From the IMG/VR virus record IMGVR_UViG_3300034027_000006, positions 1 to 60,105 of that record: a stretch of DNA of 60,105 nt; one strand, written 5' to 3'. This DNA comes from a virus (lineage: Duplodnaviria > Caudoviricetes). The notes beneath the pieces are model-generated. The model did no database searches and was not told where the DNA came from. It saw only the letters and a list, made by a program, of their open reading frames with translations. The position numbers and the translations under genes were made by a program. Positions 1-60,105 of the stretch are shown here, piece by piece (positions within the stretch are counted from its first letter, which is position 1; each line of letters begins with the position of its first letter).

Positions 1-127
1 CATAGCAACCGCACCCTAAGCACTGGCTAAACGCATCCCAAACGCATCCTAAACGCATACTAAACGCCAGCCAATCTCACCACATCCTCACCCCGCCCCA
101 CACTTCCCTCTACATAATAAAAAACCC
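1..127. repeat. Left terminal inverted repeat (putative telomere arm)
   Basis: Bases 1-127 are the exact reverse complement of 59979-60105; identity stops at position 128. Confidence 0.97.
28..71 (+). repeat. Four tandem 11-bp repeats inside the terminal repeat
   Basis: TAAACGCATCC / CAAACGCATCC / TAAACGCATAC / TAAACGCCAGC at 28, 39, 50 and 61. Confidence 0.9.
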
Positions 128-275
128 TAGATCGTGCAGAGATCTAGAGGCCGTAAAAATTGGGGTTTTTGAATTGTACCTTTTAAGTGACAGAAAAACC
201 CGCTAGGTTGGCTCAGCGGGCAAAGCGAATCAGATCTAATCTCTCACTCTAGATCTTCCTAGTTATTCTATAGGT

Positions 276-866
276 TTAATAGCCAGTCGGTCGGCTCCTG
301 GTTTTACATCTGTCATTAACTCGGCGTATCACTACGCCTTCGGCATTAGTTGCTAGCCCGTGACCCGGACAAGCAAACGCACAGCGATCACGATTTTCTA
401 TGTCATCTTGCGGTACTGGCTGCAATCTGTAACCCTGATGAGGACACTTAAAGTTCTCGACTTTTTGACCTAAGTAGTGATCTTCTATTGCTACAACAAA
501 ATCTAGGTATTTGCCCGCGATAGGCATAGATCGATGACACTGCAAGATTTTATAGAATGGCTCGCCGATAACTTCCTCTGCTAATAAAATCCTAGCAGGC
601 CACTCGCTCGGATCAAACTGCTCCCAGTAAGGTATTAATTGCTCGATTACTTCCCATTCTAAAAACCTGTAATCGTAATGAAAGTGAATCGGGTCAAATT
701 TTATTATTTTGCTGTCTGAGTGTGGCGGTGCGTCTATAATTGGCAACGCTTCATAAGTTATATAATCCCTTGCTCTCTCGCAATAGGTTGCCGCCTTAAC
801 ACATTTTACGCGAGCGTAGTCACCAGTTTTTACATTGTCTGATTGAGTCAGTTTAGTCTCGATCAT
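276..866 (-). CDS. Protein with C-terminal Rieske [2Fe-2S]-like motif
   Basis: CPHQG...CPGHG matches the Rieske CxH...CxxH ligand pattern. Confidence 0.6.
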   Translation of the reverse strand: MIETKLTQSDNVKTGDYARVKCVKAATYCERARDYITYEALPIIDAPPHSDSKIIKFDPIHFHYDYRFLEWEVIEQLIPYWEQFDPSEWPARILLAEEVIGEPFYKILQCHRSMPIAGKYLDFVVAIEDHYLGQKVENFKCPHQGYRLQPVPQDDIENRDRCAFACPGHGLATNAEGVVIRRVNDRCKTRSRPTGY

Positions 867-921
867 GTCGCTTTGTTTGTTTGTTTGCTTATCCTATCCT
901 ATACAATGTTATCCTGATTTG

Positions 922-1263
922 TCAAGACCTGCCAGAGTTTTTTAAGTAACTCTTAATTTTCTTTAGCGCGGGGCTGTTGTTTATAACATTAGCGACCGTT
1001 GGATGGTAACTTGCTAGATCGTCCGCTTGTCTGTCTAGCTCTTGCATCCGCTGATAGAGACTACCTTTTTTGTCGTTTATCTCGCGGTATAATTCTATTA
1101 TCTTGAACAAATAGCCAGCCGAATAGATGATCAAAACTGTTGCGGTGCAAACTGTGATCAAGTCAATAGCTGAGTAATTATCCGGTTTGGATACCACGAT
1201 CGCAGATACTACACCGATGGCTAAGCCTCTGGCTAAGATTGAAATATTTTTTTCGTTCATCAA
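922..1263 (-). CDS. Two-TM membrane protein with coiled-coil tail (holin or lysis accessory candidate)
   Basis: Two hydrophobic segments; lies downstream of the putative endolysin. Confidence 0.4.
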   Translation of the reverse strand: MMNEKNISILARGLAIGVVSAIVVSKPDNYSAIDLITVCTATVLIIYSAGYLFKIIELYREINDKKGSLYQRMQELDRQADDLASYHPTVANVINNSPALKKIKSYLKNSGRS

Positions 1264-1475
1264 CTTAAGTCTTTATTAGGATCAAAAATGCGACTACCCA
1301 AAAAAGTAGCAATAAAGAAGCGGGTAAAACCTCTAATTTTCCATTTGTCAACACTACTAAACCGACGCAAACGCCGACAAGAATTGTATAAGTAAAAGCG
1401 ATCCTGGTTTTTTTTGTTGCCATTTTTACCGATTTAGTAGTGATTTATTGTGCCGATGCTTTGCCGATGATTTAG

Positions 1476-2276
1476 TTAGTTGTCAGCAAAAACAGTCGGG
1501 ACACCGTTAACATGAGTAGGAATTCGCCCCCAACCTAAGCTACCACGAGGGAACCACAGGCGCTCGAAAGTGGCTATACTACACCTATCGTTTTTACCCG
1601 CTTCGGGTAAGTTTGAGATCCATTCGTCACTAGCTCCAAGTCTTGCGCCATTTGGATCGTGTATTTCTATGACACCAGCAAGCAGATTAAAGCCTTTACC
1701 TAACACGATGTGACCTTGATCCGGCCCTTTGTAGTCAAACCCCATAACGAGAGGAATATCATTCCTGATAGCTATATAAAAATCCTCTAACGTCAAAGAA
1801 GTAGACCAAAAAGATTCTATCCCGAACTGCCGCAGTGTTGCGGTGTTTGCGTCGTGATTTGTGGTGTCGCCGTGGCGATCTAATTCTGCTAAGTATATAC
1901 TTTCTGGCTGTTTAAACCCTCGCTTAATTGCCTCGGCGTCTAACCAGCCATTCCGCAATTTGTTCAACAGCATCGCGTTACAAGTTGCGTTACATTCCCT
2001 TGAACCATAACCACCGGGATTATCCCGTTGATAGTAATAGCTAACATCTAGGCTTATTATTTCTTGCTCAAAATTCCAGTGATGGACGTAAATATAAGCT
2101 CGATCAAACTCGTGATTGATTAGCTCAATCAATAGGTGATCGTTTAGCGCTGGTGTCACTTTAGACACTTGTAATGCCTGACCCTTTTGGATCGTTATTT
2201 TCTCGTGACTTGCTAGACTTTTGGAGTCTTTTAGCTTGGTTTTTAACACTGTTGAGACTCTTGCTTGTATGGTCAT
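1476..2276 (-). CDS. C39-like cysteine peptidase, probable endolysin
   Basis: YYQRDN...ECNATCNAM (Cys), GHIVL (His), IHDPNG (Asp); N-terminal SH3-like segment. Confidence 0.75.
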   Translation of the reverse strand: MTIQARVSTVLKTKLKDSKSLASHEKITIQKGQALQVSKVTPALNDHLLIELINHEFDRAYIYVHHWNFEQEIISLDVSYYYQRDNPGGYGSRECNATCNAMLLNKLRNGWLDAEAIKRGFKQPESIYLAELDRHGDTTNHDANTATLRQFGIESFWSTSLTLEDFYIAIRNDIPLVMGFDYKGPDQGHIVLGKGFNLLAGVIEIHDPNGARLGASDEWISNLPEAGKNDRCSIATFERLWFPRGSLGWGRIPTHVNGVPTVFADN

Positions 2277-2408
2277 ATTTTTAGATCCTTTTTGCTCAAT
2301 ATTTGCCCGGATAACATCGGTGTGTTATAGTAGGATAAGATTAGCCGATGGGGTGCGGTGAACACCCCATAAACTCGGCGGCCAGTCCCAAAACAAACTA
2401 ACCTAACC

Positions 2409-2777
2409 ATGAGCTTAACACAAACGATTCGCACAGCAATAGAGCAAGATAAACACGGAAACACGCACCCGATTGACTTTGATCACGTCTGGCGCGAGTT
2501 GGGTTACGTGCAGCGTAACCGAGCAGGGCGTCAAATTATCTTTAATCTGAGCGCGGGTGATGATTACATCCTGCTAGTTGATACCGATGCCACCAAAGGC
2601 CGCAAAGGTCGCAAAGCGCCACTAAATCGCATAACTTTGACTCTTAAAGGTTTTGAAAAATTAGCTCGCCTCACCAAAACCGATCGAGGTCGTCAAGCGC
2701 TTGCAAATTTTACCGAGCTACAAGCAGAATTGAGACGAGCGTATATTGACGCATTAGAGCGCGCTTATGGTCTATAA
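2409..2777 (+). CDS. Antirepressor-like DNA-binding protein (AntA/KilA-type N-terminal domain)
   Basis: PIDFDHVWRELGY...GDDY motif; operator half-sites upstream. Confidence 0.55.
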   Translation: MSLTQTIRTAIEQDKHGNTHPIDFDHVWRELGYVQRNRAGRQIIFNLSAGDDYILLVDTDATKGRKGRKAPLNRITLTLKGFEKLARLTKTDRGRQALANFTELQAELRRAYIDALERAYGL

Positions 2778-3082
2778 CGTGTAAACACTCTTAAGCCCCG
2801 TTTAACCCGCCTTAGTAGCGGGTTTTTTAATGGCTGCTTGGCTGATAAGTCAAACTCTAGCTCGTGCCTGTCGAGGTGTTGCAATATTTGGCGAGCATCT
2901 AAGTTGTAGATGTGGCGACCGTCTTTGCAACCCAAATATTTAAACTTTACTGGGAAGCTAAAAACTTGCTGACGCGAATATACCTGTACTACTGGCGTTA
3001 AGTTCAATTGTCGCGTAAACGGGTTAGATTGTATCGCCGCAATCGATTTAACTGCTTGTTTTCTCAGTTCCACTGTATCCAT
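2765..3082 (-). CDS. Hypothetical protein
   Basis: ORF packed in the terminase operon. Confidence 0.6.
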   Translation of the reverse strand: MDTVELRKQAVKSIAAIQSNPFTRQLNLTPVVQVYSRQQVFSFPVKFKYLGCKDGRHIYNLDARQILQHLDRHELEFDLSAKQPLKNPLLRRVKRGLRVFTRYRP

Positions 3083-3086
3083 AGTT

Positions 3087-3305
3087 TTAACCTCTGTCTA
3101 GTGGGTAATACTTGATAATAAGCGGAAATAGTGGCAGAAAGCAAATATAAATTGCTAATGTTTTGCCGCCGTCCAAGTCCGTCTCTAAATCCCAGAACAT
3201 CCCTACCCATAAATCGCGAATCTCAAACTTTAGATATACGGATATCAAGCCTCTGAGAAAATACGCGCTGCGACAAAACCAGAAAGTATTTTTAGATTTG
3301 TCCAT
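3087..3305 (-). CDS. Small hydrophobic hypothetical protein
   Basis: ORF spaced 4-5 bp from its neighbours; DLWVG motif and hydrophobic C-terminus. Confidence 0.55.
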   Translation of the reverse strand: MDKSKNTFWFCRSAYFLRGLISVYLKFEIRDLWVGMFWDLETDLDGGKTLAIYICFLPLFPLIIKYYPLDRG

Positions 3306-3310
3306 TTTCT

Positions 3311-4774
3311 TTATGTACTCCCCATTGGTAAACGTTTAGGTATATATTCGCTCGCCATCACAGCTAGAGCTAAAGCAAACGCGCAATCGTCGCGCTTACC
3401 TTTTTCGAGCGCTCCTAGCTTTTTATCTTGCCGCCTAAAATCTCGGAGTTGTTTAGCTAATGGTGGATCTCGCAATTGGTCAATGTATGGCGGTATTTTT
3501 ATTTTTCTCTCTTCCAGCAGCAATCCTAAGCTCATTATTGCATTAGGGATATCTGATTCGGTTATGTCTATTACCCGGCTGGATTTGTTCGCTTCCCTTA
3601 ATCTACTGGCTATTTCCTCGCCGCCGTCAGCACGTTTTAAAACTATTGCTGCGGGGTAATAACCTCGCGTAGCCGCGTTAACTAGAGCGATCGCTGTATT
3701 CGCGGATCTACTACGCTCGCTGACACACTTAACCACAATACCATCAACTAAGCATACTGCGGCTGTATGTGTCCCGTTGAAATATAAACCGATAGAGCAA
3801 CTTTTGACCGAGGGATCAGGCCTTCTATCTCTGATTTCAGCATCGGCAATCGATTCGGCGCTGAAGACTTCGATCGCTGCGTCCGAGAATTCGAGATTAA
3901 ATTCTCGTTTTGCGTCCACTAGATCCATGTTTAATTTTTTTGCCATATCCTCCACAAAATTGTCGTTTTGAGAGTATTTAGGGTGACACTTCCAATGTAT
4001 AAAAACTTTGGCATTGCCGTTCCCGTCTTTAAACCAGTAAAATCCGGGCAAATTGTCAGAGTATAACTCACCTTTTGCAACTTGCGAGCAGATATCCTCA
4101 ATATCCCGATCGCCGTTGTTTTCGGTTAGTTTATCCCAGTACCAGCCCGACTTAGCTGACGGGGTAGATACTATAATCACCTTTGCATCGTCACCCGTTA
4201 GAATTGTCGATCCTACCGATGCCGAGTAAATGCTTGCAATATTAGCTTGAAACGCCGCCTCGTCAAAAAACAAGTACATTAGAGAATCTGCGGATCTGTT
4301 TCCTTCTTTGCTGCTGTTGTGAGTCCTGATCTCGGCTCCATTTATTAGCCTGATTAACTTGCTTTCTTCCTTCTCTCTATCTAGTCTCGCTTGCTCTGCT
4401 AGCCATCGAATACGGCTATTTATGGCTGTTGCGTCATCCTCGTTACGCATAAAACAGCTAGCTGCGAAAGCGGGGTTTTTAGCTGCCTCGTGCAACAGTA
4501 ACGCGATGACCGATTGAGTAGTGCCTAATTGCCTTGTTTTTACTACTATGGTCGCAGGGTGTGCGGCAATTATTCGGGCAAGTAAGACTTGATATATATA
4601 AAGGTTGAAAGGCAGCATTTTGCCGCCCGACCGCATTACAATACTAGAGCAAAAATCATCGAGTTTGTCCGGGACTATTAGTAGTTTAGTCTCGTTTTTT
4701 CGAGTAGAAAGTTGCTCTAGTTTTAATTGTACTTTTGCTAGTCGGTCGCTAAATGCTCTTAAGCTTGTCGGCAT
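3311..4774 (-). CDS. terL: Terminase large subunit (ATPase intact, nuclease motifs degenerate)
   Basis: Walker A KTRQLGTT, Walker B FFDEAAF, coupling motif STP, C-terminal DD..ALALA. Confidence 0.9.
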   Translation of the reverse strand: MPTSLRAFSDRLAKVQLKLEQLSTRKNETKLLIVPDKLDDFCSSIVMRSGGKMLPFNLYIYQVLLARIIAAHPATIVVKTRQLGTTQSVIALLLHEAAKNPAFAASCFMRNEDDATAINSRIRWLAEQARLDREKEESKLIRLINGAEIRTHNSSKEGNRSADSLMYLFFDEAAFQANIASIYSASVGSTILTGDDAKVIIVSTPSAKSGWYWDKLTENNGDRDIEDICSQVAKGELYSDNLPGFYWFKDGNGNAKVFIHWKCHPKYSQNDNFVEDMAKKLNMDLVDAKREFNLEFSDAAIEVFSAESIADAEIRDRRPDPSVKSCSIGLYFNGTHTAAVCLVDGIVVKCVSERSRSANTAIALVNAATRGYYPAAIVLKRADGGEEIASRLREANKSSRVIDITESDIPNAIMSLGLLLEERKIKIPPYIDQLRDPPLAKQLRDFRRQDKKLGALEKGKRDDCAFALALAVMASEYIPKRLPMGST

Positions 4775-5064
4775 TTTTCCTCTAAATGCTTTAGCAGTGG
4801 CAGATCTTCTACGACCTTAACCTCGGCTATTTTCATCAGGATTTCTAACAGCATTTTCGATGCTGCGATTTTATCTTTGTTGTCGCTCCCCTCGTCGCTG
4901 ATTATGTCGGTCATTTTTTCGACGCCAAGCGCTACGCCTTCCAGCGCATCACTTAGGATCGTGTCATAACTAACACTGTTCTTTTTGCCTTGCCCTTTTT
5001 CTGGTTGTGTCTCTAGCTGATGCACTTGCGGTTGCACCAGTTGAATCGGCCCTTTTTTTCGCAT
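4759..5064 (-). CDS. Probable terminase small subunit
   Basis: Small helical protein overlapping the terL start; DKIAASKMLLE motif. Confidence 0.55.
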   Translation of the reverse strand: MRKKGPIQLVQPQVHQLETQPEKGQGKKNSVSYDTILSDALEGVALGVEKMTDIISDEGSDNKDKIAASKMLLEILMKIAEVKVVEDLPLLKHLEEKCRQA

Positions 5065-5076
5065 TGTATTAGCCTG

Positions 5077-8000
5077 TTAAATCGTCTCGACAATTATTTC
5101 TACTTGCGATAATTTTAACAGTATTTGCCCGACTGTGTGCTTAACCCAGACTAGCCAATCCTCAGTATTTACAAGTCTTCTAGGTTTGCTCAGGAGTTTG
5201 ACGCGATCGCCAATCTTGATCTCTGGATTGCCTACCTCTGATTTTATGGCAAACTCAAACTCGCGCCAGTTAATGCCGTCTAGTTCTGGCGGTACGGTTG
5301 CCAAGTCTGAGACTTGGGCGAGACTTGGCTCGGACTTGGCGACCTCGATCGGCGCTTCCTGTGCCTTCGCTTCTACTTGCTGTTTCAACACTTCGGGTAA
5401 TACCCAGTCGGTGTTAAATTGCACGTAGCGACGCTCTACCGCTTCATTTATAGCCATCCTGACGGGGCTATCGAGCCAAGTGTCATCTAAGGCATAAGTG
5501 TTAAGTCGCTCGCCGTCTTTCTGCACTTTTTGGCATGGCCCCAATTTTAGGCCCACAACCTCTAAAACTTTCCGCAGGTATTTAATCGAGTCCGTTTTGC
5601 CCTTGTTTGCTCCTTTGGCTATTACTGGCACTTTAAAGCCAAGTGCTGCAATAATTCGCTCGCGCCTGCCGAGCTTGCATAACTCAACTAATTCGGGGCT
5701 ATCTTTATGCCAGACTTTCTCACGGTCTAAAAAGCGCTCTATTTTTAGGTATTGTAGGGCTTTGATTTTTAGATTAGGTGAGTAAAGGTCAGGCAAGTAT
5801 ATAGCCCGTTGAGTCGCGATTTTTGCCCAGTTGTTTTGTTGTCTTTTGTTGGCAGTATCGGGATTGTGGAACATATAGAAAAACTCAGCGGCTCTTATTG
5901 CCTTCGGATCGTCATATTTCAAAAACTCGATAAAATCAGCACTCCAAAGATCGGTTAACTCTATACCTGGTAGCAAGTTTTTGTAACTGTGTTTGATCAG
6001 CTTAACTCGCTCTGGCCAGGTAACATTCCAGCCGCCTGTTAGTTTCTCTGCTTGTTCGTCGGTGATATCTGCGGCCTCGAATATCTCTTTTGCGGTCGTT
6101 TTTTTGACTTCCTCAGATGCCATTTTTAACGCGGCTTCTACTTTCCCATCTGCATAGATAAACTTTTTCTCTAGCTCGTGGCCAGCGTCTTCTAATGCAA
6201 AAATCAAACACTCTTGTAGATTCTTGCGCTCGAATGCTTCTTTTTGAGCGACAGTGATAGCAAAAAGGTTATCAGGATCGGTTTGAGCTTCTGCTATTAG
6301 GTCTAAAAATTGTTGACCTAGCCAGCCTTTATTTAGTCTGAGGTGCGAGATATCCATCTCGGCTAACTCTACTAACTTAGAGGCTGCTGCGTTAATTGTG
6401 TCGAGGTTTGCGTCGGTATTTCCTCTTAAAAATGACTGCTTAGGTATTGATATATGCCAGATACTTTCAGGGCATCGGTTTCGAGCCATTATCTGCATAG
6501 AGTTATCTGTACCGATTACACCTCTAAATAATCCGTAGCTGTGGGCAAAATAGCCGGGGCGATTGAAGTCTATCCCGCTCTCTGCTGTAGGGCTACACAA
6601 TATATAAAAAGGTTGGTGAGCGTCGATCCATTTATTAGCATCATCAAGGCATTTTCTTGCTTCTGTACCAGGGCTAACCGTTTTAGAGTCAATACGCAAA
6701 CCCTCTAGCCCCGCTTCTATTAGTAGTAACTCGATTTGCTCTAACAGTTTTTGTGAGTCACTAAAGACGATAAATGGTTTTGTCGCGGATAACATCGGGG
6801 CAACAAAAGGTGAGAGGTTTTTGTCGTCAAATTTACCCGATTTTGTGGGAGTGCCAAGCAGTATCTCGACTTTAGCTTTAGGTCGCTGCTTTTTGTTTTC
6901 TAGCTTGACTAGCTTTTTGTTTGGCGCTTTGTCTGCCAACCATTTAGCTACCCAGTCAGCAAAATTACCGTCTAGGAATATACAGCAATAAGACAGATCG
7001 ATCGCCTGCCTAAAAAGTTCTAAAGATTCGATCCTATCCTTGCGGTGTGTAGCACTTGCTGCAATGTGTAAAGCTACTGACATCGCCTCATCAATTATTA
7101 CTACTTTATTCCTAAACCATTCGGGATTAGAAAACTTTTTGATCGAGTTCGTACAAAGCGCGAGGCGACTTTGTGGATCTTTCATCATGATCAAAAGTTC
7201 TTCGCGTAAGTGAGAAAAAGACGGGATTCTAGTAGTGAAGTTGTAGATCAGCGAATTGCGAGCAAACAGTGCGATCGCGCCTTTATCCTCAAACGGCCCA
7301 CCCTTTGCGAACAGTCCCTCTAGTTGGCGAGTTTTCCCAGAACCTAGCCCCGATTTTACGGCTAGCATAATGCCTTCGGATGGAGCATCAAAGCTTACAA
7401 ATTCTGACTCTTGGACTAGATCAGGAGTAAATTCTCGCTTATGTATCCACCAACCCCAATCATTAGGACGCTCTGGCGCTTCTGTTTTTGACTGTTCAAC
7501 TGCCTCTAATGCTTTGCGCTCCTGTCGTGGCAGTGTTGACGATTTACGCTTTGGTGGCTCTATTTCTTTCGGCTTTTTATACTGTTCTACAATTTGCCAG
7601 AATTGGTGTAAATGCAGTATTTTAACACCGTCAAAATTTTCTAGTTCGTCTATATCATCAGCAGTTTTATCGACTTGTCCCCACCAAGCAATTAAAGGTC
7701 GGTATCCCTCACGCTCTAACCAATTTATTTGACGTTCTAGCCTGTCAGTAACATGATGGTTAATCACGTCGCCCGCGTCAATTGTCATTATCAATTCACG
7801 GGTTTGATACTTGTCTGTCAAATGTTCAAGCGTGGCTCGTGTGTTTTTTGGCGAGCTTGCATATAAGCCGCCAGCCGCTCCAATTACCGGGGCCTTCAAT
7901 CTTAGATTAGCGATCGCTGGTTTCATGCCCGCGCTGTCTGTTAGCCAGATCTTATCCTGTGGCCCTTCTATCGCCTCGTCGCAACAGGTGATCGGGTTTT

Positions 8001-8685
8001 CCCCGTTGAGATAGGCTGAATTGTCGCGAGATAACCATCTATGGCGGCCCTGACCTTCTGTCACTTCACTAAATCGGACTTGAGCGCCCACTATGCGACC
8101 AAGATGATCGCGCACAGGGCAAAATATGCCCGCGCTCTTGACTTCTAGTTGCCCGCTCCCAAATTTGAAACAGTAGCCGGGTAAATTGTCCGGGTAGCGG
8201 TTGCGTAACTTGTGCCACTTGTCAACTGACCGAAAACCGATTTTTTCGATCTCAGCGTCGCTGAGGCCTCGCGCCCGTAAGCTAGCCCGATCGCTCGCCG
8301 ACAGGCTTAACTCTGATAAAAGTTTTTTATAGTGCAGATCTCGCTCGGCCGCTGGCATCTCATTCTTTAATGCCTCAGCTCGCCGTTTTTCGTCTTCGGC
8401 TTTTATCGCCTCGATTTTTTCCCGATGTGCCGCTCGTGCTTCCTCCGACAATTCTTGCTCGCGGTGAGGGTGAAACGTCGCCCAAATTCCGCTACCCATA
8501 GGAGCCGAGCAAAACCAGACTTGACCGTCAAAACCGTGTATTTTGTCAAATTTTGCCGAATCCGCGTAAGTCTTGCATAAATACGTTATCTGATCGAAAG
8601 CGTTTAGTTTCTCTCGACAGCCCCCGCGAGCGTTACCGCAAACGGGGCAAGGATTGGAGACGCCTGTTGGTCTAAAATCTGGCAT
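5077..8685 (-). CDS. repA: Primase-helicase plasmid replication initiator, CyRepA-like
   Basis: N-terminal Zn finger CPVCG..C, TOPRIM-like DAGD and DDIDE, Walker A GLGSGKT, Walker B IIDEA, SF2 motifs SPTAESGIDF and QIMARNR. Confidence 0.8.
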   Translation of the reverse strand: MPDFRPTGVSNPCPVCGNARGGCREKLNAFDQITYLCKTYADSAKFDKIHGFDGQVWFCSAPMGSGIWATFHPHREQELSEEARAAHREKIEAIKAEDEKRRAEALKNEMPAAERDLHYKKLLSELSLSASDRASLRARGLSDAEIEKIGFRSVDKWHKLRNRYPDNLPGYCFKFGSGQLEVKSAGIFCPVRDHLGRIVGAQVRFSEVTEGQGRHRWLSRDNSAYLNGENPITCCDEAIEGPQDKIWLTDSAGMKPAIANLRLKAPVIGAAGGLYASSPKNTRATLEHLTDKYQTRELIMTIDAGDVINHHVTDRLERQINWLEREGYRPLIAWWGQVDKTADDIDELENFDGVKILHLHQFWQIVEQYKKPKEIEPPKRKSSTLPRQERKALEAVEQSKTEAPERPNDWGWWIHKREFTPDLVQESEFVSFDAPSEGIMLAVKSGLGSGKTRQLEGLFAKGGPFEDKGAIALFARNSLIYNFTTRIPSFSHLREELLIMMKDPQSRLALCTNSIKKFSNPEWFRNKVVIIDEAMSVALHIAASATHRKDRIESLELFRQAIDLSYCCIFLDGNFADWVAKWLADKAPNKKLVKLENKKQRPKAKVEILLGTPTKSGKFDDKNLSPFVAPMLSATKPFIVFSDSQKLLEQIELLLIEAGLEGLRIDSKTVSPGTEARKCLDDANKWIDAHQPFYILCSPTAESGIDFNRPGYFAHSYGLFRGVIGTDNSMQIMARNRCPESIWHISIPKQSFLRGNTDANLDTINAAASKLVELAEMDISHLRLNKGWLGQQFLDLIAEAQTDPDNLFAITVAQKEAFERKNLQECLIFALEDAGHELEKKFIYADGKVEAALKMASEEVKKTTAKEIFEAADITDEQAEKLTGGWNVTWPERVKLIKHSYKNLLPGIELTDLWSADFIEFLKYDDPKAIRAAEFFYMFHNPDTANKRQQNNWAKIATQRAIYLPDLYSPNLKIKALQYLKIERFLDREKVWHKDSPELVELCKLGRRERIIAALGFKVPVIAKGANKGKTDSIKYLRKVLEVVGLKLGPCQKVQKDGERLNTYALDDTWLDSPVRMAINEAVERRYVQFNTDWVLPEVLKQQVEAKAQEAPIEVAKSEPSLAQVSDLATVPPELDGINWREFEFAIKSEVGNPEIKIGDRVKLLSKPRRLVNTEDWLVWVKHTVGQILLKLSQVEIIVETI

Positions 8686-8709
8686 AAATCAAATGGCTCC
8701 TTTTTGGTA

Positions 8710-8738
8710 TTGCCAAATGATTTCCCAGCCCGTATAAT
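8710..8738 (+). promoter_or_regulatory. Sigma70-type promoter, antisense to the rep leader
   Basis: TTGCCA-17 bp-TATAAT. Confidence 0.75.
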
Positions 8739-8744
8739 GTAGAC

Positions 8745-8836
8745 ATATTGATAAACATAATTTTCGCTTTGTTTGTTCGCTTGGGTTTTCTGGTGTGACC
8801 GCTGATAACGGTTACGGGCTAGGAAACCATTTTTTT
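8745..8836 (+). ncRNA. Putative ~90-nt counter-transcribed antisense RNA controlling rep
   Basis: Follows the consensus promoter; ends in a long hairpin (GGTTTTCTGG..GTGACCG/CGGTTAC..CTAGGAAACC) plus a T run. Confidence 0.6.
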
Positions 8837-8944
8837 GTCTATTTGAGCATCACCCAAACGCTTCTAAATTCATTGTGACTTAAGATCGAATCGAGCGCAA
8901 GTCCTGCCAGTCCTTGATCTTTTCGTCAACCATTAACAAAATTT

Positions 8945-10336
8945 ATGCAAAACGACCCGTCAAAATATCCTGATTTTTCCTCTACCGAAAGCGGGTGGCA
9001 ATGGTACACAGGCGAGGTTTTTCTCCCTCACTGGCTAGAATCGATACTAGACCTGAGTATCCCAGACAATCAGCGAACCTCACGGGCTATAGCTGCAAAT
9101 TTTCAATCTTGCAACCGTATCGCTGAAGTTATAGATCGTCATATAGCTGCGTTGTCACCCTCTAGCCTCAGCTTTGATAACCCTTTGTTACAAAGCTTAA
9201 TAGAAAAGTGGGAAAGAGAAAACTCCGGCATTTTTGGGCATCCACTTGAGGAAGCTGCGTTAAGAGCCAAAATTGACGGGCGAGCATATCTGCGACTATT
9301 TTTTAAGCAGTCTTATGCAGGGCAAGAGCCGCTTGATTTCCTAGAGGTTCATTGTCCGCCCGCTGAGAGCGTGAAACCCTATCGCAATAATGATCGCTTT
9401 CTAACTGGTTTTGAATATAACTATGTTGAGGATGGCGAACAGTACACCGAAAAACAGTTTTTAAAGGGATCTTTAACTGTTTTTCAAACTATCTATAAAG
9501 GTGAGATAATAGCAGAGAAAACTTTCGAGCGTGATCTTGGTGGGGGTTTTAGCATTGTTGAGATAAATTTAAAACCAATGCTAACCGAATCAATAAAAGA
9601 AAACCAGAACGGCATAAACTTCGCATTAACCTTATTACCGACAAACCTTGCTCGCAATGGCTGGCTGCAAAAAACAGTCTTAAACGGTCAACCGCCCGGA
9701 AAATGGGATTTTGACGACAAAGGCCGAGAGGTCTTTACCCCAAGCAAAGACGGATTACCAGCAGGCCCCGGTATAACTCAATTTATACAAGGCTTGCCAA
9801 TAACTGATGAGCGCGGCGTTATGACAGGTTACACCGTACCCGATATGAGGTCAGAGCAACCCATTAGCCCCGAAACTTTCACTGCAACAGTTAGAGCATT
9901 TTCTCAGTTGATCTATGAGCAAGTCGATCAGAGTTACATTCTAGCCAGCGATCTAGTTTTAAGCGGGGTTAGTCGCGAACAATCAAGACGAGATTTTGCA
10001 GATATAGTTAATGCTGACGCTGTTAAGCTGGGTTATGTCTACAGTGATTTATTAACTGTTTGTAATTACTTTCTGGGAGTTAAGCAACCAATAAAAGCAC
10101 AGTTAAAACCTAGGATAGATAGAGGCATAGAGCATAAGAAATTAGTGCTAGAAGCTCGATCGCAAGGGCTAATAACTAAACGCACAGCAATCGAGGCGTT
10201 AGGGTTTGAGATTGACATAGATGCAGAGCTTGCAGAGCTAGAAAAAGAGGCACAGAAAGCAGCAGAATTAGAAAAACCGCCAGAGACAGTCAAGCCGTCC
10301 GGCGGTGCTATTAAAGACGAAAAAACAGCCGATTAA
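8945..10336 (+). CDS. Probable portal protein
   Basis: 463 aa; N.I.EV.DRH, DGRAYLRL, SGVSREQ and C-terminal GLIT..TA...LG..D.DAEL patterns typical of portals. Confidence 0.7.
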   Translation: MQNDPSKYPDFSSTESGWQWYTGEVFLPHWLESILDLSIPDNQRTSRAIAANFQSCNRIAEVIDRHIAALSPSSLSFDNPLLQSLIEKWERENSGIFGHPLEEAALRAKIDGRAYLRLFFKQSYAGQEPLDFLEVHCPPAESVKPYRNNDRFLTGFEYNYVEDGEQYTEKQFLKGSLTVFQTIYKGEIIAEKTFERDLGGGFSIVEINLKPMLTESIKENQNGINFALTLLPTNLARNGWLQKTVLNGQPPGKWDFDDKGREVFTPSKDGLPAGPGITQFIQGLPITDERGVMTGYTVPDMRSEQPISPETFTATVRAFSQLIYEQVDQSYILASDLVLSGVSREQSRRDFADIVNADAVKLGYVYSDLLTVCNYFLGVKQPIKAQLKPRIDRGIEHKKLVLEARSQGLITKRTAIEALGFEIDIDAELAELEKEAQKAAELEKPPETVKPSGGAIKDEKTAD

Positions 10337-12143: not shown

Positions 12144-12146
12144 ATT

Positions 12147-48958: not shown

Positions 48959-51900
48959 GTTTTTTATGACAGTTCAGATCATGGCAGCTAAATCGACAGA
49001 ACCCAAAAGACCATTGTTTAAGTCAGGCGATATAGTCTACTACCGCAACGGCAACAAATTTGAGCAGGCAACAGTAGATCAAGATCAGCCTTCACGCATG
49101 GCTAAAATTATCTGGATTTACTACAATCGCCCCGGCAATAGAAACCCGCATAAATTCAAGGCTTTTTTACAAGAGGTTTACACGGTCGCCGAGTATGAAG
49201 CCCTAAAAGATCAGCCAGTCGCAGCACTCTACAAAAAAGGCGACGCTCTGATATTGACTGAGGACGGCGAATCGTACCCGGTACGCTGCGAGCGAGATCA
49301 AATTTCAGCCAGTAGCGATCGGCTTTATGTAAGCGGTTATCACCTCGAAAACACTTGGGTAGATATCGCCAAGCTGTCACCAGCAGAGGAAGTCACACCA
49401 GCAGAGGAAGTCACACCAGCAGAGGAAGTCACACCAGCAGAGGAAGTAGCACCAGTCGCACCAGTCGCACCAGTCGCACCAGTCGCACAGACTAAAACAG
49501 TCAAGAAACTTTTTGAAAAAGGAGATCTAGCCTATTTAAAAACGCCTACAGATTACACCCCGGTGACTGTAACTATTAGCCAGCGACATAGCAAATCTAA
49601 AAAAATCGAGGTCTTATCCTTTGGTCGCAAGATCGACGTTCTAGTCAAAGACTTGATAACAGTTGCAAAATATCAAGAAATCACAGGCGATAATAGCCCT
49701 GTGCAATTAGACAAACCGCGCCGCTTATTTCAGGCGGGTGACTGGTGTTACTGGCAAGCTCGCCCCGGCAATGAACCCCACAACAAAAGGATCGTCAAAT
49801 GCGACCACAACCAGCACAAAAACGATCATATTGTCTGGGTTGTGGAACTTAAAGGCAATTGGCGCGATCGTTTTGGAGTCGATAGCAACTTACTCGGATT
49901 GATCACAGATCCGGCAAAGCTAGCCGAGCTAGACGCTAACGAGAAAGCGATCGAGGCAAGGGTAGACGAGATCAAGCGCAAGGAAGCAACAGACACAGAG
50001 GTAGCGCTCGCCGATGTTATTCCGATAGCAGAAACGGTCGCCGATGCTATCCCAGCAACCGAAACAGCGATCGCAGAGGTCGCAGCAGTTGCCGGCCCGC
50101 CTGAGTGCTACCCCGATGGCATCCGACGCGATAGCGCGATCGGGCGGATACGGGCTGAGGATGAGCGAGCCATTGCTGCAATGTTGAAAGCAGGCGATCG
50201 CCGTTGGTGGCGAGCAAGTGTCGGTAATTATCGATATGCTTGCGTAGAAAAAGACCAAAAAAGTCCAACCTCTAAAAAAGTTCAGATCTTGCACTGGCGC
50301 GACGATCGCCCCGGCGTTAGTCCCGAAGGCGTGGGCCCGGTTTGGGTAAACATCTCTGATCTACTGACAGAGGAGCAATATAAAGAACAAAAGCAGAATG
50401 AGGCTAAAAAGCGCGTTGAAGCTTTGTTACCTGCACGGGATGAGGAAACACCAGCCGAAAGCGTGACGGTAGCCTTCACGTCGCCGGAATCGTTCGCTAA
50501 AGTAATGTTGAAGGCTGGCAACAACGCCGGAGAGATTAGCCGACTGTGCGATCGATTGCTAGCCCTGCCAATGTTCGATAGAACTCGGATTAACGAGCGC
50601 ACAAAATTAACTCGCCTCGGCCCTTATAGTCGAGCGCTAGAGGCAGAGATCAAGCAATCAGGGTTTGAGCTTATTCGCCATACAAACGCGGTAGTCTGGC
50701 GAAGAAAAGACGGCAGCGAGCAGTTACGTCACTATTACTACAAGCTCGTCGGGCTGATGGATTATGACTGGGACGCTGACAACCAAAAAGCAGCCGAGAA
50801 AGTAATCGCAAAGCTAGACAATCAAGTCGCAAATATTGACAGCGAGACTTACATTAAGACTGTTGAGACTCTGCTATGGTTTGACGATCCGATAAAAGTT
50901 TTAGGCGGTCTAGTTGGCGCTAGCGGTCGCCGGATTGTGGAACTAATAACGCTCGGAAATTTCACCGAGATCGAGAATCAAACCGATCGAGTAGTGTTTC
51001 ACGGGCAAGCTAAAAAGCGAGATAAACCGAGCGATCCTTACGAGATTTATTTGCTCGGATGCACCGCTAAAGACTTTTTAGCTAAGCTTGATTTTGTGCG
51101 CGACAGTGATGAGATGAAAGCAGCCTATGAGGGTCTAGACCCCGATAGCTCTGATTTCTTAAAGAGACTATCAGATCGGCTGAGGGTGCAAGTCAATCGC
51201 GAGGCGGTCGGCCCTGCGTTTGAATGGCTACAAAGTCGCGAGGGTGAGGAGCGAGCAACAACTAAAACACTAAGATCGACTTGGGCTGCTGTTGTCACTA
51301 GCAAGTATTGCCCGCCAGAAACTAACCCGCTGCTGTTTACTAGCCGACTGCTCGGACACTTTACGGGGTCAGTTGAAAGCATGGCAGACACGCTGAACTA
51401 TATCGACAGCGTGGCCGCCAAGTCCGACGAGCCAAACTTAGAAAAAGTCGAAGAGGTTCAAAGATGGCAGAGCATTGTAGACGGAATAATAGTCAAGCAA
51501 CCTAACGCGACATCAGGAGTCGAAACAGCGACAGCAGAGACAATCCAAGATCCAACAGAAACAGAAGAGGAAGCAACGCCAGCGCTCGATTATGTTCAAT
51601 TTGTAGAAGATGAAGCGGGCGATCGTCACAAGCGCGATTTTTACGAGTCGCCAGTCTGGGCATCTCTTGCGATGCTCGAATATGGCGGAATCACCGGGAC
51701 TGTCGGCGAGTGCTGCAACGGATACGGGGCAATAAGCCGAATATTTCAAAAGGCAAATTATGCAGTCTGGACTAATGATATTGACCCGGAGAAACCCGCA
51801 GATCACCATATAGACGCAACTGTCGAGGAATTGTGGGACAGCTTACCTGATGCTGACTGGATTATCTCAAATCCACCTTACGGGAAGCTATCAGCCCCCA

Positions 51901-52661
51901 TCGTTATCAACGCTTTCAAAAAAGCCAAAAAAGGCATCGCAATGGTTTTAAAGATGAATTGGTGGGAGTTATGCCAAGATCGCAAGCAGTTCTTAAAAGA
52001 ACATCCACCAACAGGCTTTATAAACCTGCCGAGATATTGTTACCGCAAGGCTACCGCGACCGGGAAGTGGGCAACAGATGAAGCGCCGACAGTGATCTAT
52101 ATCTGGGATAAATCAATAACCCACGGGCTAACTCAAACGATACCTTTACCAGCCGACGAGCTTAGACTGTTTTATCGCACACCTGACGAAACACCAGAAC
52201 TCGAAAAAATCGAGACAGAGATAGCCGACATCATGGCTAAAAAGCTAGAGGCGGTCAAATCTGTCGAAGTCAAGCCGACTGTAACGATCGATGTGGCAGA
52301 AAGTAAACCAATCGAAACAATAAAAGCAACTAAAACCGAACCTGTAGAAACTGATCCGGCTTCAGTGCCGAAAGTAAGTCGAAAGGCGAAGGAAGTTAAG
52401 CCTAAAAAACCACGCTTAACGATGGAAGAAAAGCTCGAAAAAGTTAGCGAAAAAATGCGAGCTTTCTTAGAGAAAAATGCAGCGTTAGAGAAACCCGATC
52501 GCTGGTTTGTTAGTCAGAATATTATAGCCCGTGTCGCCGGAGTAGGTCACGATCTGGCTAACGAATGGCTTAACTTGAATAAGCCCTTACTTGACGCACA
52601 CAACCTCGGCTTAAACCGCTCGGAGCAAAACCGGGGGCGAAAATTCGAGAATCTAAATTAG
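48957..52661 (+). CDS. Protelomerase (telomere resolvase) fused to N-terminal KOW/Tudor-like repeats and a C-terminal amino-methyltransferase domain
   Basis: SGRR.VE (aa ~657), F.GQAKKR (~686), LRS.WA (~773), LLGH (~801), TLNY (~815); then DFYESP, ECC.G.GAI, NDID, IISNPPY (~972). Confidence 0.85.
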   Translation: MFFMTVQIMAAKSTEPKRPLFKSGDIVYYRNGNKFEQATVDQDQPSRMAKIIWIYYNRPGNRNPHKFKAFLQEVYTVAEYEALKDQPVAALYKKGDALILTEDGESYPVRCERDQISASSDRLYVSGYHLENTWVDIAKLSPAEEVTPAEEVTPAEEVTPAEEVAPVAPVAPVAPVAQTKTVKKLFEKGDLAYLKTPTDYTPVTVTISQRHSKSKKIEVLSFGRKIDVLVKDLITVAKYQEITGDNSPVQLDKPRRLFQAGDWCYWQARPGNEPHNKRIVKCDHNQHKNDHIVWVVELKGNWRDRFGVDSNLLGLITDPAKLAELDANEKAIEARVDEIKRKEATDTEVALADVIPIAETVADAIPATETAIAEVAAVAGPPECYPDGIRRDSAIGRIRAEDERAIAAMLKAGDRRWWRASVGNYRYACVEKDQKSPTSKKVQILHWRDDRPGVSPEGVGPVWVNISDLLTEEQYKEQKQNEAKKRVEALLPARDEETPAESVTVAFTSPESFAKVMLKAGNNAGEISRLCDRLLALPMFDRTRINERTKLTRLGPYSRALEAEIKQSGFELIRHTNAVVWRRKDGSEQLRHYYYKLVGLMDYDWDADNQKAAEKVIAKLDNQVANIDSETYIKTVETLLWFDDPIKVLGGLVGASGRRIVELITLGNFTEIENQTDRVVFHGQAKKRDKPSDPYEIYLLGCTAKDFLAKLDFVRDSDEMKAAYEGLDPDSSDFLKRLSDRLRVQVNREAVGPAFEWLQSREGEERATTKTLRSTWAAVVTSKYCPPETNPLLFTSRLLGHFTGSVESMADTLNYIDSVAAKSDEPNLEKVEEVQRWQSIVDGIIVKQPNATSGVETATAETIQDPTETEEEATPALDYVQFVEDEAGDRHKRDFYESPVWASLAMLEYGGITGTVGECCNGYGAISRIFQKANYAVWTNDIDPEKPADHHIDATVEELWDSLPDADWIISNPPYGKLSAPIVINAFKKAKKGIAMVLKMNWWELCQDRKQFLKEHPPTGFINLPRYCYRKATATGKWATDEAPTVIYIWDKSITHGLTQTIPLPADELRLFYRTPDETPELEKIETEIADIMAKKLEAVKSVEVKPTVTIDVAESKPIETIKATKTEPVETDPASVPKVSRKAKEVKPKKPRLTMEEKLEKVSEKMRAFLEKNAALEKPDRWFVSQNIIARVAGVGHDLANEWLNLNKPLLDAHNLGLNRSEQNRGRKFENLN
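49378..49488 (+). repeat. In-frame tandem repeats, 18 bp x4 and 9 bp x4
   Basis: Encode (PAEEVT)n(PVA)n, a linker. Confidence 0.9.
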
Positions 52662-53703: not shown

Positions 53704-53748
53704 AAGTAAATAGCCGTAGCGTTTGCCAATCGCTACGGCTATTTACTT
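53704..53748. terminator. Long hairpin between convergent genes
   Basis: AAGTAAATAGCCGTAGCG...CGCTACGGCTATTTACTT. Confidence 0.8.
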
Positions 53749-54821: not shown

Positions 54822-54882
54822 AAAACCTTAAATCCCGATCAAAACACCAATTCGCAGATCATACACCCCCACAAAGTCCGAG

Positions 54883-55068
54883 TCAAGTCTCGGACTTGCT
54901 GGCATCCTCCTGAACACTGGAATAATGCAGCTTAGCATACTCGGCAATAAAAGCTTTTATCCGAGGGATTAATTCAACTGGTACGCGGATCGATTCCGTC
55001 TTGATACCGGGCCCGTATTTAGCTTTACCCGGTCTAAGATTCTTGATCGAGTTTTTGTGTACTGGCAT
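54883..55068 (-). CDS. Small ribbon-helix DNA-binding protein
   Basis: NS.KNL.P...KT.SIRVP.EL...I; GACTT array overlaps its 3' end. Confidence 0.6.
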   Translation of the reverse strand: MPVHKNSIKNLRPGKAKYGPGIKTESIRVPVELIPRIKAFIAEYAKLHYSSVQEDASKSET

Positions 55069-55991: not shown

Positions 55992-56022
55992 AATTGGCAA
56001 GTAAAGTTTAAAAAAGTTTTCG

Positions 56023-56058
56023 ATCCTATCCTGAGTTTCTGGGATAAGATGGTATAGT
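56023..56058 (+). promoter_or_regulatory. Palindromic operator plus extended -10
   Basis: ATCCTATCCT-8-GGGATAAGAT-GGTATAGT. Confidence 0.8.
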
Positions 56059-56095
56059 GGAAGAGACAGGACAAAAAAAACAAAGCGAATCAATT

Positions 56096-57923: not shown

Positions 57924-58020
57924 AAAACTAACCCGTGTCAACGCTTCAGCCAGCCCCGATCGCGGGGCTGTTTCTATTGTGGCTACCATGCCAACCGCGA
58001 GAGGTAAAAAAAACTTTTTG

Positions 58021-58056
58021 ATGTTATCCTGAGAATTCAGGATAGGATGGTATACT
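58021..58056 (+). promoter_or_regulatory. Palindromic operator plus extended -10
   Basis: ATGTTATCCT-8-AGGATAGGAT-GGTATACT. Confidence 0.8.
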
Positions 58057-58088
58057 AGAATAGACGGACAAACAAAGCGAGCAAAAAA

Positions 58089-59096
58089 ATGACTAATCAA
58101 AAACCCGTAGGCTATACCCGGCAAATCTTAAAGCTTAACAGCTTGACCTCTAAAGAGCTTGATAAAGAATTGTCAGCAGCAAAAGTCAAAGGCCGTTCTA
58201 CAGCTAAAACAAAAGTCGAAAAAATCGAGCTTTTAATGGTCAATGTTTACGGCTACCCCGCTGGCTATAAAGGCATCGGATATACAGGCGACTTCGGCGA
58301 GCCAAGTTTTAACTCCCCCGAAGTTAAACCAACAATCACGCCAGAAACCGAAACAACAGCCCCGGCAAAAGTTGAGCGCGTCCGAGTCAAGCTATATTTT
58401 GACATTAACAATATTTGCCTCGGCGGTTGCTGCGATGATTGCTGGCTACCTCTTTACACGGGCGAGGAGTATGTCGCTAGTGAGTTTTTCAAGCTCACAC
58501 CCGGTTTTAATCCAGTGGGAAAAACTGTTAAAGAACTGCAACAAATTGAGCAAGACAGCAACCCATATAAAATCGCAGCAACAGCAACAGCGGTCGCGCT
58601 AGAGGCAAAATTAACAGCCGAGAAAGCAGCATATATCGCAGAAGTAGAATCGAACGGATTAGAAGCCAAAGCAGAAGCGACAAGAGCAGCCGAAATCGTA
58701 GCAACAGCCAAAGCGCAAAAGACAGCCCGAAGCGTTGCAGCTATAGAGGCTATGGGCTTAGACGTTCAAGAAGCAAACCATCTAGCCGAGGCAGCTAAAA
58801 AATACCCTGCACTGGCAAAAATCAAAATCGATTATCCTAACCTAGATATTTCTGAGCTAGAGGCAGCTTTTAACAATGATGAGATTTTAGAGATCAAACA
58901 AATTCAAAAAGGAGCTATCCCGATTTTTTTAGTGTTGCGAGTTTGGGGTAAAAATGAATGGGTAACACATCACTACAACGCAGCAAATAACGGGTTTTCG
59001 CTCGGCTGGTATTTTAAAGATCTCCAGAAGGCACAGGATAACTATAGGAAGCGCAAGCGGGGCGAATGCTCACCACTTGGCCCGGTAACAAGATAG
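58089..59096 (+). CDS. Early protein: Rho-N/HEH-like N-terminus plus a third LYF..IC.G domain
   Basis: LTSKEL...K.E.IELL; VKLYFDINNICLGGCCDDCW...GFNPVGK. Confidence 0.7.
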   Translation: MTNQKPVGYTRQILKLNSLTSKELDKELSAAKVKGRSTAKTKVEKIELLMVNVYGYPAGYKGIGYTGDFGEPSFNSPEVKPTITPETETTAPAKVERVRVKLYFDINNICLGGCCDDCWLPLYTGEEYVASEFFKLTPGFNPVGKTVKELQQIEQDSNPYKIAATATAVALEAKLTAEKAAYIAEVESNGLEAKAEATRAAEIVATAKAQKTARSVAAIEAMGLDVQEANHLAEAAKKYPALAKIKIDYPNLDISELEAAFNNDEILEIKQIQKGAIPIFLVLRVWGKNEWVTHHYNAANNGFSLGWYFKDLQKAQDNYRKRKRGECSPLGPVTR

Positions 59097-59124
59097 AAAA
59101 CCAAACAGTCAGACAAATAATATC

Positions 59125-59160
59125 ATCCTATCCTGATAACACAGGATAGGATGGTATACT
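59125..59160 (+). promoter_or_regulatory. Palindromic operator plus extended -10
   Basis: ATCCTATCCT-8-AGGATAGGAT-GGTATACT with perfect arms. Confidence 0.85.
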
Positions 59161-59198
59161 ATATTAAGCAAACAAAATCACTCACCGAGAATTACATC

Positions 59199-59867
59199 AT
59201 GACCACTGAAACCGCCTCAGCCCCTACCGCTAAATTCATCAACTGGAATAAAGCTATTCAAGTTAAAAACGGATTTTTACCCGCTGACCTCTCTGTCGCT
59301 TTAGGTTCTGAAAAGTTACAGAATATCTGGTTAAACGTCCGCAAGCGAACAATCGCCGAAGTAGCTAACGAAGTAAGAACACTCTGGATCGAGGCTGTAG
59401 CAATCGAAAAAGGTTTGGACATCACGACAGCAACTAAGCGAGTAGAGGCTTACATCGAACGCTATGATAATCCGGTTAACTGGATCTATGTAGAAGCCGA
59501 TGGATCGTGGGTTATGCCTGGTGATCCAATGTTCGCTAGCACTCCAGACACTGAAGTAGCAGCCGAAGTCGCCGAAGTAGCACCCCTGACAGAGAAAGAG
59601 ATCAAAAGCGCCAAAAAGGTTAAAAAACTAATCAAGTCAGATCCAGTAAACGAGCAAATTTTCTGGTATATCATCCAAAATCGCCCTATTCACTCGGTCG
59701 GATTTTGCAACACTGCCGGAATCGACACTAGAACAATGCAAGCAAGGGCCCGCACCATACAATCAGCAATTAAAGACTCAATCAAAAACGAGACTGTTGC
59801 GACTCATCTAATCCGCATTATGGGTATCGAGTCAAAAACCGAAGGCGGATGGCTTAAAACGCGATAA
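59199..59867 (+). CDS. Hypothetical early protein
   Basis: Start revised to ATG 59199 because the track start lies inside the promoter. Confidence 0.65.
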   Translation: MTTETASAPTAKFINWNKAIQVKNGFLPADLSVALGSEKLQNIWLNVRKRTIAEVANEVRTLWIEAVAIEKGLDITTATKRVEAYIERYDNPVNWIYVEADGSWVMPGDPMFASTPDTEVAAEVAEVAPLTEKEIKSAKKVKKLIKSDPVNEQIFWYIIQNRPIHSVGFCNTAGIDTRTMQARARTIQSAIKDSIKNETVATHLIRIMGIESKTEGGWLKTR

Positions 59868-59978
59868 ACTGACCGTAGCAGAATCAAATAGAAGCCCCGC
59901 TCTGTCCAGTGCCGGGGTTTTATTATGTAAAATTTAAAAGCATTTGTTCTAAAGTCAGGCCCACCGAGTCGTAACGGC

Positions 59979-60105
59979 GGGTTTTTTATTATGTAGAGGG
60001 AAGTGTGGGGCGGGGTGAGGATGTGGTGAGATTGGCTGGCGTTTAGTATGCGTTTAGGATGCGTTTGGGATGCGTTTAGCCAGTGCTTAGGGTGCGGTTG
60101 CTATG
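59979..60105. repeat. Right terminal inverted repeat (putative telomere arm)
   Basis: Exact reverse complement of 1-127. Confidence 0.97.

Follow-up and report, generated by a model that had tools for sequence, protein, structure and literature searches.

Whether a tailed phage of a cyanobacterium can persist as a linear, hairpin-ended plasmid is the question raised by IMG/VR record IMGVR_UViG_3300034027_000006, a single contig of a tailed virus that was analysed over its whole length of 60,105 nucleotides (1-60105, called here the window). A first-pass annotation, made from the letters alone, had read it as a hairpin-telomere linear phage-plasmid because its ends form a perfect inverted repeat of 127 bp, because it encodes a protelomerase domain, a CyRepA-like primase-helicase and the head and tail of a myovirus, and because no integrase was seen. 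The reading that we favour, with a probability of roughly 60%, is that the window comprises the unique core of a phage-plasmid whose host is a filamentous soil-crust cyanobacterium, probably one of the Microcoleaceae; the element would be hairpin-ended, replicated by CyRepA1 and resolved by its protelomerase. What stands of the earlier claim is a tailed phage with CyRepA1 and a protelomerase and without an integrase; what does not stand is the 127-bp repeat as the hairpin end.

Protelomerase and replication protein on a tailed phage genome

The plus-strand open reading frame (ORF) at 48957-52661 encodes a protein of 1234 residues, a protelomerase-methyltransferase-like fusion with its protelomerase core at residues ~600-820 and an NPPY domain at residues ~880-1095. 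Residues 625-808 match PF16684 (ResT-TelK_cat) at E 3.1e-23 and 82.7 bits (cut-off 27), and a phmmer search retrieved the Agrobacterium TelA structures. A model of residues 560-1100 (mean predicted local distance difference test score, pLDDT, 73.6) was compared with known structures using Foldseek, which placed TelA and TelK at ranks 1-7 (E 1.6e-10 to 1.4e-8; target TM score 0.53-0.57 for TelA) and ResT at rank 15. Residues R659, K686, R773, H801 and Y815 are invariant in 13/13 aligned family members. In the pairwise alignment with TelA, the two arginines and the histidine fall on its active site and the tyrosine lies 3 residues off; Y815 was assigned as the nucleophile because of its invariance in the family. 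With its catalytic residues intact, the enzyme looks functional.

The second half of the model matches N6-adenine DNA methyltransferases (M.TaqI and type I M subunits) in the Foldseek search, and phrog_799, 'DNA methyltransferase', at E 9.5e-21; its NPP is invariant across the 13 members and the following Y nearly so. The family of such fusions comprises 13 proteins, the window's included, at E <= 1e-5 among 7998 scored candidates from a collection of 5.8 billion sequences. Several of them are encoded on contigs of 43-59 kb. A 52.5-kb relative of the window, G147, also encodes the fusion (L042, 1375-4224). The N-terminal half of the protein holds about five copies of a ~55-residue module with a (K/Q)xGD motif, and tandem PAEEVT and PVA repeats encoded at 49360-49485.

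In a tblastn search of 50,697 phage records, 17 records matched the protein and none of these matches (0/17) lies on the protelomerase core. Cyanobacterial plasmids, by contrast, matched on the core in 8 of the best 25 matches listed, and 33/36 plasmid records matched by the protelomerase query are cyanobacterial; this distribution fits the suggestion that the element was assembled independently of N15. A single-protein pattern search of viral and genome contigs found no close relative of the protelomerase and likewise none of the terminase. Within the family that the Genome Taxonomy Database (GTDB) assigns to Microcoleus vaginatus HSN003, from which 144 genomes were searched (the host family hereafter), a protelomerase domain is encoded in 8/144 genomes. 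These eight loci are ~25% identical to the window's protein and seven of them (7/8) gave no tblastn match; they were set aside as evidence on shared arms, being too distant to tell.

The replication protein is encoded on the minus strand at 5077-8685 (1202 residues). It matches the CyRepA1 family model NF042913 at 286.4 bits against a curated cut-off of 200, over model positions 5-592 of 595, and also phrog_4913, 'replication', so that the CyRepA-like assignment is borne out. By tblastn, 107 plasmid records matched it, and all 25 matches listed are cyanobacterial. Next to it, the large terminase subunit (3311-4774, minus strand; PF03237 at E 2.9e-7, phrog_2 at E 4.3e-21) has homologues on seven cyanobacterial plasmids of 14-27 kb, at 30-35% identity over 80-95% of the query; in AP018305.1 (17431-18846) and AP018215.1 (2390-3745) the terminase homologue lies near a Rep gene. 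The window's capsid, portal and tail genes matched nothing on these two plasmids by tblastn. The small plasmids that carry a terminase may be phage satellites or remnants.

The window encodes a full virion module, with terminase, portal, capsid, neck, contractile tail, baseplate and endolysin, and the myovirus head and tail genes claimed at first are all there. Most of them form a minus-strand block running from ~30.7 to 10.9 kb, with the major capsid protein (25680-26861; phrog_29 at E 1.4e-13, PF03864 at 19 bits, below the cut-off of 22.9), the tail completion or Neck1 protein (24153-24581; phrog_26 at E 8.2e-27), the contractile sheath (21991-23370) and tail tube (21475-21981), which as a block (21475-23370) match PF04985 at E 6.6e-7 and phrog_23 at E 3.8e-35, and the 1322-residue tape measure protein (16606-20574; PF10145 at E 7.5e-25, phrog_28 at E 8e-56). 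Baseplate and tail genes follow, namely a tail-X-domain protein (13686-14804), a phrog_52 tail protein (12574-13677), a WDGH-domain protein inside the baseplate block (12147-12608; PF25311 at E 3.7e-28) and a gp25/W-like baseplate protein (11853-12143). The portal protein (8945-10336, plus strand) was recognised by fold. Its model has a mean pLDDT of 63.7, the ten best-ranked Foldseek matches are without exception portals (E ~1e-10 to 1e-8), and its profile matched the SPP1 portal at E 0.023. A P2 gpI-like baseplate or tail protein (Tail_P2_I, PF09684 at E 9.2e-8) is encoded at 31527-33092 on the plus strand, an endolysin candidate (phrog_10051 at E 1.9e-25) at 1476-2276 on the minus strand, and a SNF2-family helicase (PF00176 at E 1.1e-25, PF00271 at E 1.2e-16, phrog_62 at E 6.7e-80) at 33678-35906, also on the minus strand. 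A single Microcoleaceae genome, G031, contains a homologue of the WDGH-domain gene that is 68% identical at the DNA level, and a small ORF beside the sheath gene contains a (GGTGCx)n repeat at 23382-23447. Profile scans gave no family match for most proteins of the right arm of the window, and transfer RNA and Rfam scans of the window returned nothing.

No near-identical DNA for window positions 1-25000 was present among 72,556 plasmid and 50,697 phage records, and nothing in the phage collection matched the capsid. A capsid search led to three IMG/VR relatives at 70-72% identity, and a capsid alignment search of viral contigs gave the same three. G147, alone among the relatives, is collinear with the whole window, the protelomerase at one end and the terminase at the other, and the fragment G146 has the same block of portal, Rep and terminase genes. 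On this comparison of sequences the combination of genes is judged to be real, and a chimeric join of a plasmid to a phage excluded. The last 1.55 kb of G146 (L046) and positions 50804-52355 of G147 (L044) share a lysis-like cassette at 99.5% identity, whereas the other proteins of G146 and G147 are each only ~27-76% identical to the window's; either a recent exchange of modules or a scaffolding artefact would account for the shared cassette, G146 containing five runs of N.

Terminal repeat and ends of the record

Positions 1-127 of the window are the exact reverse complement of positions 59979-60105, so that the perfect terminal inverted repeat was correctly seen, and from base 128 the two ends diverge completely. 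IMG/VR gives 'inverted terminal repeats' as the end class of the record, and CheckV a completeness of 72%. Taken literally, the terminal repeat would be complete in these 127 bp, the hairpin would turn at base 1, and the two ends put together would make up the tel palindrome. Besides the end class, the joined ends themselves (...GCTATG|CATAGC...) favour this, having the alternating pyrimidine-purine centre that is found in known tel sites. We nevertheless regard this literal view as very unlikely and the alternating centre as probably a coincidence, on the following evidence.

G147 bears the same 'inverted terminal repeats' label, and its perfect repeat is exactly 99 nt long; 127 and 99 are standard word sizes of SPAdes-family assemblers. 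When a unique edge of an assembly graph lies between opposite copies of a longer repeat, the assembler leaves exactly one word of the repeat on either side of the contig. At both of its ends G147 cuts through an inward-reading ORF (PANLAGKTQAEII...), and the sequence must therefore continue outward. The arm of G147 is unrelated in sequence to that of the window and the topology is the same, which speaks for terminal repeats that have a function and against an insertion sequence that happens to flank the core. The end region of G147 matched none of the 144 host-family genomes.

Public assembled contigs (Logan), which cannot separate a hairpin from a head-to-head junction, were aligned to window positions 1-20000. 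In run X2, the last 128 nt of a 1698-nt contig match window positions 1-127 (97% identical, with 3 mismatches and 1 gap); the contig stops exactly at base 127 and carries 1570 nt outward of window base 1. Run X1, which is probably the source sample, covers the whole 1-20000 stretch at >=99%, and two of its contigs run over the ends of the stretch.

Within the repeat, and mirrored at the right end, positions 28-71 hold four tandem 11-bp units, (T/C)AAACGCATCC-like, which are candidate protein-binding iterons. A degenerate form of the pattern found similar arrays in seven metagenome and two genome contigs, which share only 42-67 nt at 80-88% with the window repeat. Related metagenome contigs extend 270-2100 nt outward past the equivalent of base 1, again at odds with base 1 as a tip, and one array-bearing contig starts near the equivalent of base 127. 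One of the genome contigs lies mid-chromosome in M. vaginatus and one is a Vibrio metagenome-assembled genome (MAG); L006, L009 and L011, which show no further likeness to the window, were dropped as evidence. On the M. vaginatus HSN003 chromosome (~3.585 Mb), L004 1425-1475 contains three tandem CAAACGCATAC, the same 11-bp unit as in the terminal repeat, directly upstream of a short open frame (frames judged by eye; the locus is unannotated). The 127-bp repeat itself gave only chance-level matches in HSN003 (E >= 0.4).

Plasmids with a related replication apparatus show what the ends of such elements can look like. Two plasmids of Nostoc N6, pNPM10 and pNPM8, were deposited as linear and each encodes a protelomerase; pNPM8 has a CyRepA1-family Rep and pNPM10 a Rep homologue annotated as a helicase. 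The terminal repeat of pNPM10 is 1057 bp long (957 perfect); those of Fischerella plasmids 7 and 4 span 1491 and 2832 bp, respectively, and that of Calothrix plasmid 8 is ~1455 bp. The Fischerella and Calothrix records (L049-L051: AP018305.1, AP018302.1 and AP018215.1) are annotated as 'circular' and carry a protelomerase homologue. Calothrix plasmid 8 has a 49-nt palindromic fold-back at both ends, the sequence at its tip matching the start of the linear pNPM10. These three NIES plasmids are probably hairpin-ended linear molecules. The window ends show no local fold-back, unlike the Calothrix record. Only 127 bp of repeat are present in the window, and these relatives, with long terminal repeats and a hairpin tip, point to a longer arm. 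A recent preprint showed that a cyanobacterial protelomerase resolves its palindrome into hairpins in vitro, and took inverted repeats at contig ends to be sequencing read-through of hairpins (bioRxiv 10.1101/2024.11.13.623437).

Taken together, the repeat lengths of 127 and 99 nt, the cut ORF at the ends of G147 and the outward extension of the X2 contig lead us to conclude that the record is a truncated core, that the inverted arms on its two sides exceed 127 bp, and that neither the arm tips nor the tel site are included in it. The 127-bp repeat is almost certainly not the telomere, and marks a break in the assembly graph rather than a physical end. The protelomerase gene does end 7444 bases short of the right contig end, in line with the earlier figure of ~7.4 kb; since the contig ends are assembly breaks, this offset is only a lower bound. 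A linear hairpin replicon still fits the data, because the Nostocales protelomerase plasmids have terminal repeats of 1.0-2.8 kb.

Several points weigh against the hairpin-ended phage-plasmid that we favour. The argument from word sizes is tempered by the lack of any documentation of the assembler behind the two records. The X2 sample lacks most of the phage, so that its contig shows possible rather than actual joins of the 127 bases. No hairpin, fold-back or tel palindrome was found within the record. The outward arm was not recovered: exact patterns of bases 1-30 gave 0 matches in metagenome and viral contigs, and that of bases 96-127 gave 0 matches in viral contigs. A 45-bp near-palindrome at 53704-53748 was considered as an internal tel site and set aside; it lies between convergent genes, which suggests a terminator.

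The same graph structure bears on a different topology, a circle or other form in which the two arms of a large inverted repeat would separate the core from a second segment, and the protelomerase would be inactive or repurposed. A unique edge bounded by a repeat in both orientations is equally expected from a circle with two inverted copies, and the CheckV estimate leaves room for further unique sequence. We hold this to be improbable, as the catalytic residues of the protelomerase are invariant across its family, the topology recurs in G147 with an unrelated arm, and 4/4 comparable cyanobacterial plasmids with Rep and protelomerase have terminal repeats, one of them with fold-back read-through. 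Terminal inverted repeats are also a hallmark of open-ended linear genomes that, like those of tectiviruses and phi29, bear a terminal protein as a cap and replicate by protein priming. This last possibility can hardly be credited: no protein-primed family-B polymerase (PF03175) was detected at E <= 1 in six frames, a search whose control was weak (4/14 genomes positive, none above the cut-off), and the window encodes a protelomerase and an initiator-helicase instead.

In the linear phage-plasmid that we favour, the window would be flanked by terminal arms that far exceed 127 bp and may reach 1-3 kb, which the assembler would have collapsed and cut off, and the outer tips of these arms would be covalently closed hairpins. 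In the cell, replication would start from an internal CyRepA1-dependent origin and, on passing through the hairpins, would yield inverted-repeat junctions; like TelN in N15, the protelomerase would cut each of these and reseal it as two hairpins. Adenines in the element's own DNA would probably be the substrate of the fused methyltransferase-like domain, and virions would be produced from the same genome by means of the terminase encoded beside rep.

Maintenance, regulation and host

Searches of the whole record in six frames for a tyrosine integrase (PF00589), a serine recombinase (PF00239) and an rve transposase (PF00665) were empty at E <= 1, their controls being positive in 14, 13 and 11 of 14 genomes, respectively, and the element can be taken to lack an integrase as first proposed. 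Stable plasmid lysogeny would be expected from the presence of Rep and protelomerase together with this absence, and the N15-like gene set likewise leads us to expect a linear hairpin-ended plasmid prophage. On the opposite side, ParA/ParB profiles (PF02195, PF13614, PF01656) gave no match at E <= 1 in the record, no CI-type repressor was recognised in the window, and an HTH_3 match at 40316-40378 scored 11.9 bits, below the 23-bit cut-off; since neither ParA, ParB nor such a repressor was recognised, stable low-copy plasmid lysogeny is unsupported by the gene content. The capsid profile, moreover, matched none of the 144 host-family genomes, and a resident prophage copy is not known in any isolate.

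These observations would suit a phage with a hairpin-ended linear replicative form that never becomes a stable plasmid prophage, being virulent, pseudolysogenic or in a carrier state, and using Rep and protelomerase during lytic growth only; the low depth of ~5x in total-community DNA is in keeping with it. Such a lifestyle nevertheless seems unlikely to us. CyRepA1 is a plasmid-maintenance initiator, as its plasmid matches indicate, the partition genes could lie in the missing arms, and the failure to find a copy in the 144 genomes counts for little because MAG binning usually drops plasmids. Repressor control is suggested in addition by four promoter-like units of ~69 nt (46693-46761, 56006-56074, 58004-58072 and 59108-59176), in which an ATCCTGA-N-TCAGGAT palindrome stands beside GGATGGTATAxT. 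Each is upstream of a rightward gene (46819, 56057, 58089 and 59151, respectively), and the four look like operators of one repressor.

Two further repeats were observed. A second palindrome, CCCTGATATCAGGG, occurs at 11924-11937 and 46655-46668, the latter copy between divergent genes, ahead of gene 46819; a variant at 35953-35976 precedes gene 35995. Six copies of a short GC-rich palindromic repeat (AAGTCCGAGACTTGG...) are scattered within and between genes, with positions 5300-5338, 39167-39194, 42372-42399, 43626-43653 and 54871-54898.

Four spacers from four genomes, all in the M. vaginatus family and each inside an array of 37-nt repeats, match the window. The G091 spacer matches 32911-32951 at 40/41 bases, within the Tail_P2_I gene, and those of G078, G070 and G044 match 15010-15044 (33/35), 42793-42827 (33/35) and 8062-8103 (37/42). 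When a phylum-wide even sample of 401 genomes was compared with window positions 1-20000, only G044 matched again. The HIP1 sequence (GCGATCGC), a cyanobacterial hallmark, is present in 27 copies against 1.2 expected (~20-fold; at most 6 in 200 shuffles), and G147 has 26. Because of the four spacer matches and the HIP1 enrichment, the host is a cyanobacterium, as the first-pass annotation held, and probably one of the Microcoleaceae of biocrust or soil. The runs holding window sequence are biocrust and soil metagenomes, among them run X4 from another study (13 contigs at >=99%) and run X3, with a relative at ~94%. Other DNA matches to the host family were not used. The (GGTGCx)n repeat at 23382-23447 matched in 101/144 genomes and positions 49445-49501 matched collagen-like genes in four genomes, both being low-complexity sequence, and a match to G138 (72% over 101 nt) was grouped with these.

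A probable telomere phage-plasmid in a new phylum

We read the window as a telomere phage-plasmid in a new phylum, the ends of which would be hairpins. If so, the cyanobacterial counterpart would have been built from unrelated parts, and the hairpin-plasmid lifestyle would have arisen more than once; recently recognised cyanobacterial linear replicons would be linked to phage spread; and a natural linear vector with a new protelomerase would be at hand for filamentous cyanobacteria that are hard to engineer, the likely host being Microcoleus, a keystone organism of desert soil crusts. More generally, metagenomic inverted-terminal-repeat ('ITR') labels with a repeat length equal to an assembler word size mark truncated rather than complete genomes. 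A bolder proposal, which we put forward tentatively and at somewhat less than even odds, is that of a first cyanobacterial telomere phage family, in which a Mu-like-tailed Microcoleus myovirus would live as a hairpin-ended linear plasmid on a native backbone of CyRepA1 and protelomerase. Its arms would be exchangeable with those of the other linear replicons in the community, its protelomerase would have gained an adenine methyltransferase domain, and the 14-27-kb plasmids with no more than Rep, protelomerase and a terminase homologue would be satellites or remnants of such phages.

The literature covered, in part by title and abstract, contained no cyanobacterial telomere phage, though supplements may list some, and the main texts of a 2021 phage-plasmid survey and a 2025 telomere-phage paper have 0 mentions of cyanobacteria; in these sources, the telomere phages described so far are from Proteobacteria. 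Protelomerases that keep hairpin telomeres in cyanobacteria have been described for the telomeric transposons of Leptolyngbya ohadii and their TelT (bioRxiv 10.1101/2024.11.13.623437). Those are one-ended transposons of the Tn7-like kind that encode TnsB, TnsC and TniQ, whereas the window is a phage without an rve-type transposase.

The Nostocales linear plasmids (pNPM10, pNPM8, Fischerella NIES-4106 plasmids 4 and 7 and Calothrix NIES-22 plasmid 8) resemble the window in their Rep (26-30% identity), protelomerase core (27-30%) and inverted terminal repeats, and two of them carry a terminase homologue beside rep, as the window does. When 64 window proteins were compared with these five plasmids by tblastn, Rep and protelomerase were found in 5/5, the terminase in 2/5 and virion-structure genes in 0/5. 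The plasmids differ further in their size of 21-67 kb, in their protelomerases of ~600 residues without a methyltransferase domain and in their Nostocales hosts.

For the tail, the P2/Mu-like character proposed earlier proved apt. The nearest relatives are BcepMu-like phages (BcepMu, phiE255 and relatives), to whose sheath that of the window is 33-35% identical over 73-88% of its length, and the tube, gp25 and tail-X proteins are of the P2/Mu kind. Unlike these phages, the window has no DDE transposase, a capsid unmatched in the phage collection and a different replication strategy.

N15, PY54, phiKO2, VP882, VHML and phiHAP-1 are likewise tailed phages with a protelomerase and a large initiator of their own and without an integrase, and the VP882 group is also myoviral, like the window. 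By contrast, the window's Rep is CyRepA1, by name not of the N15 RepA family, the SopAB-like partition genes that define the N15 group were not found in the window, the tel site is not beside the protelomerase gene in the record, the protelomerase has a methyltransferase-like domain and the host phylum is Cyanobacteriota. Judged from its genes, the element thus works like the N15-type telomere phages but is not their kin, since its protelomerase, capsid and Rep have no matches there and their partition genes were not found.

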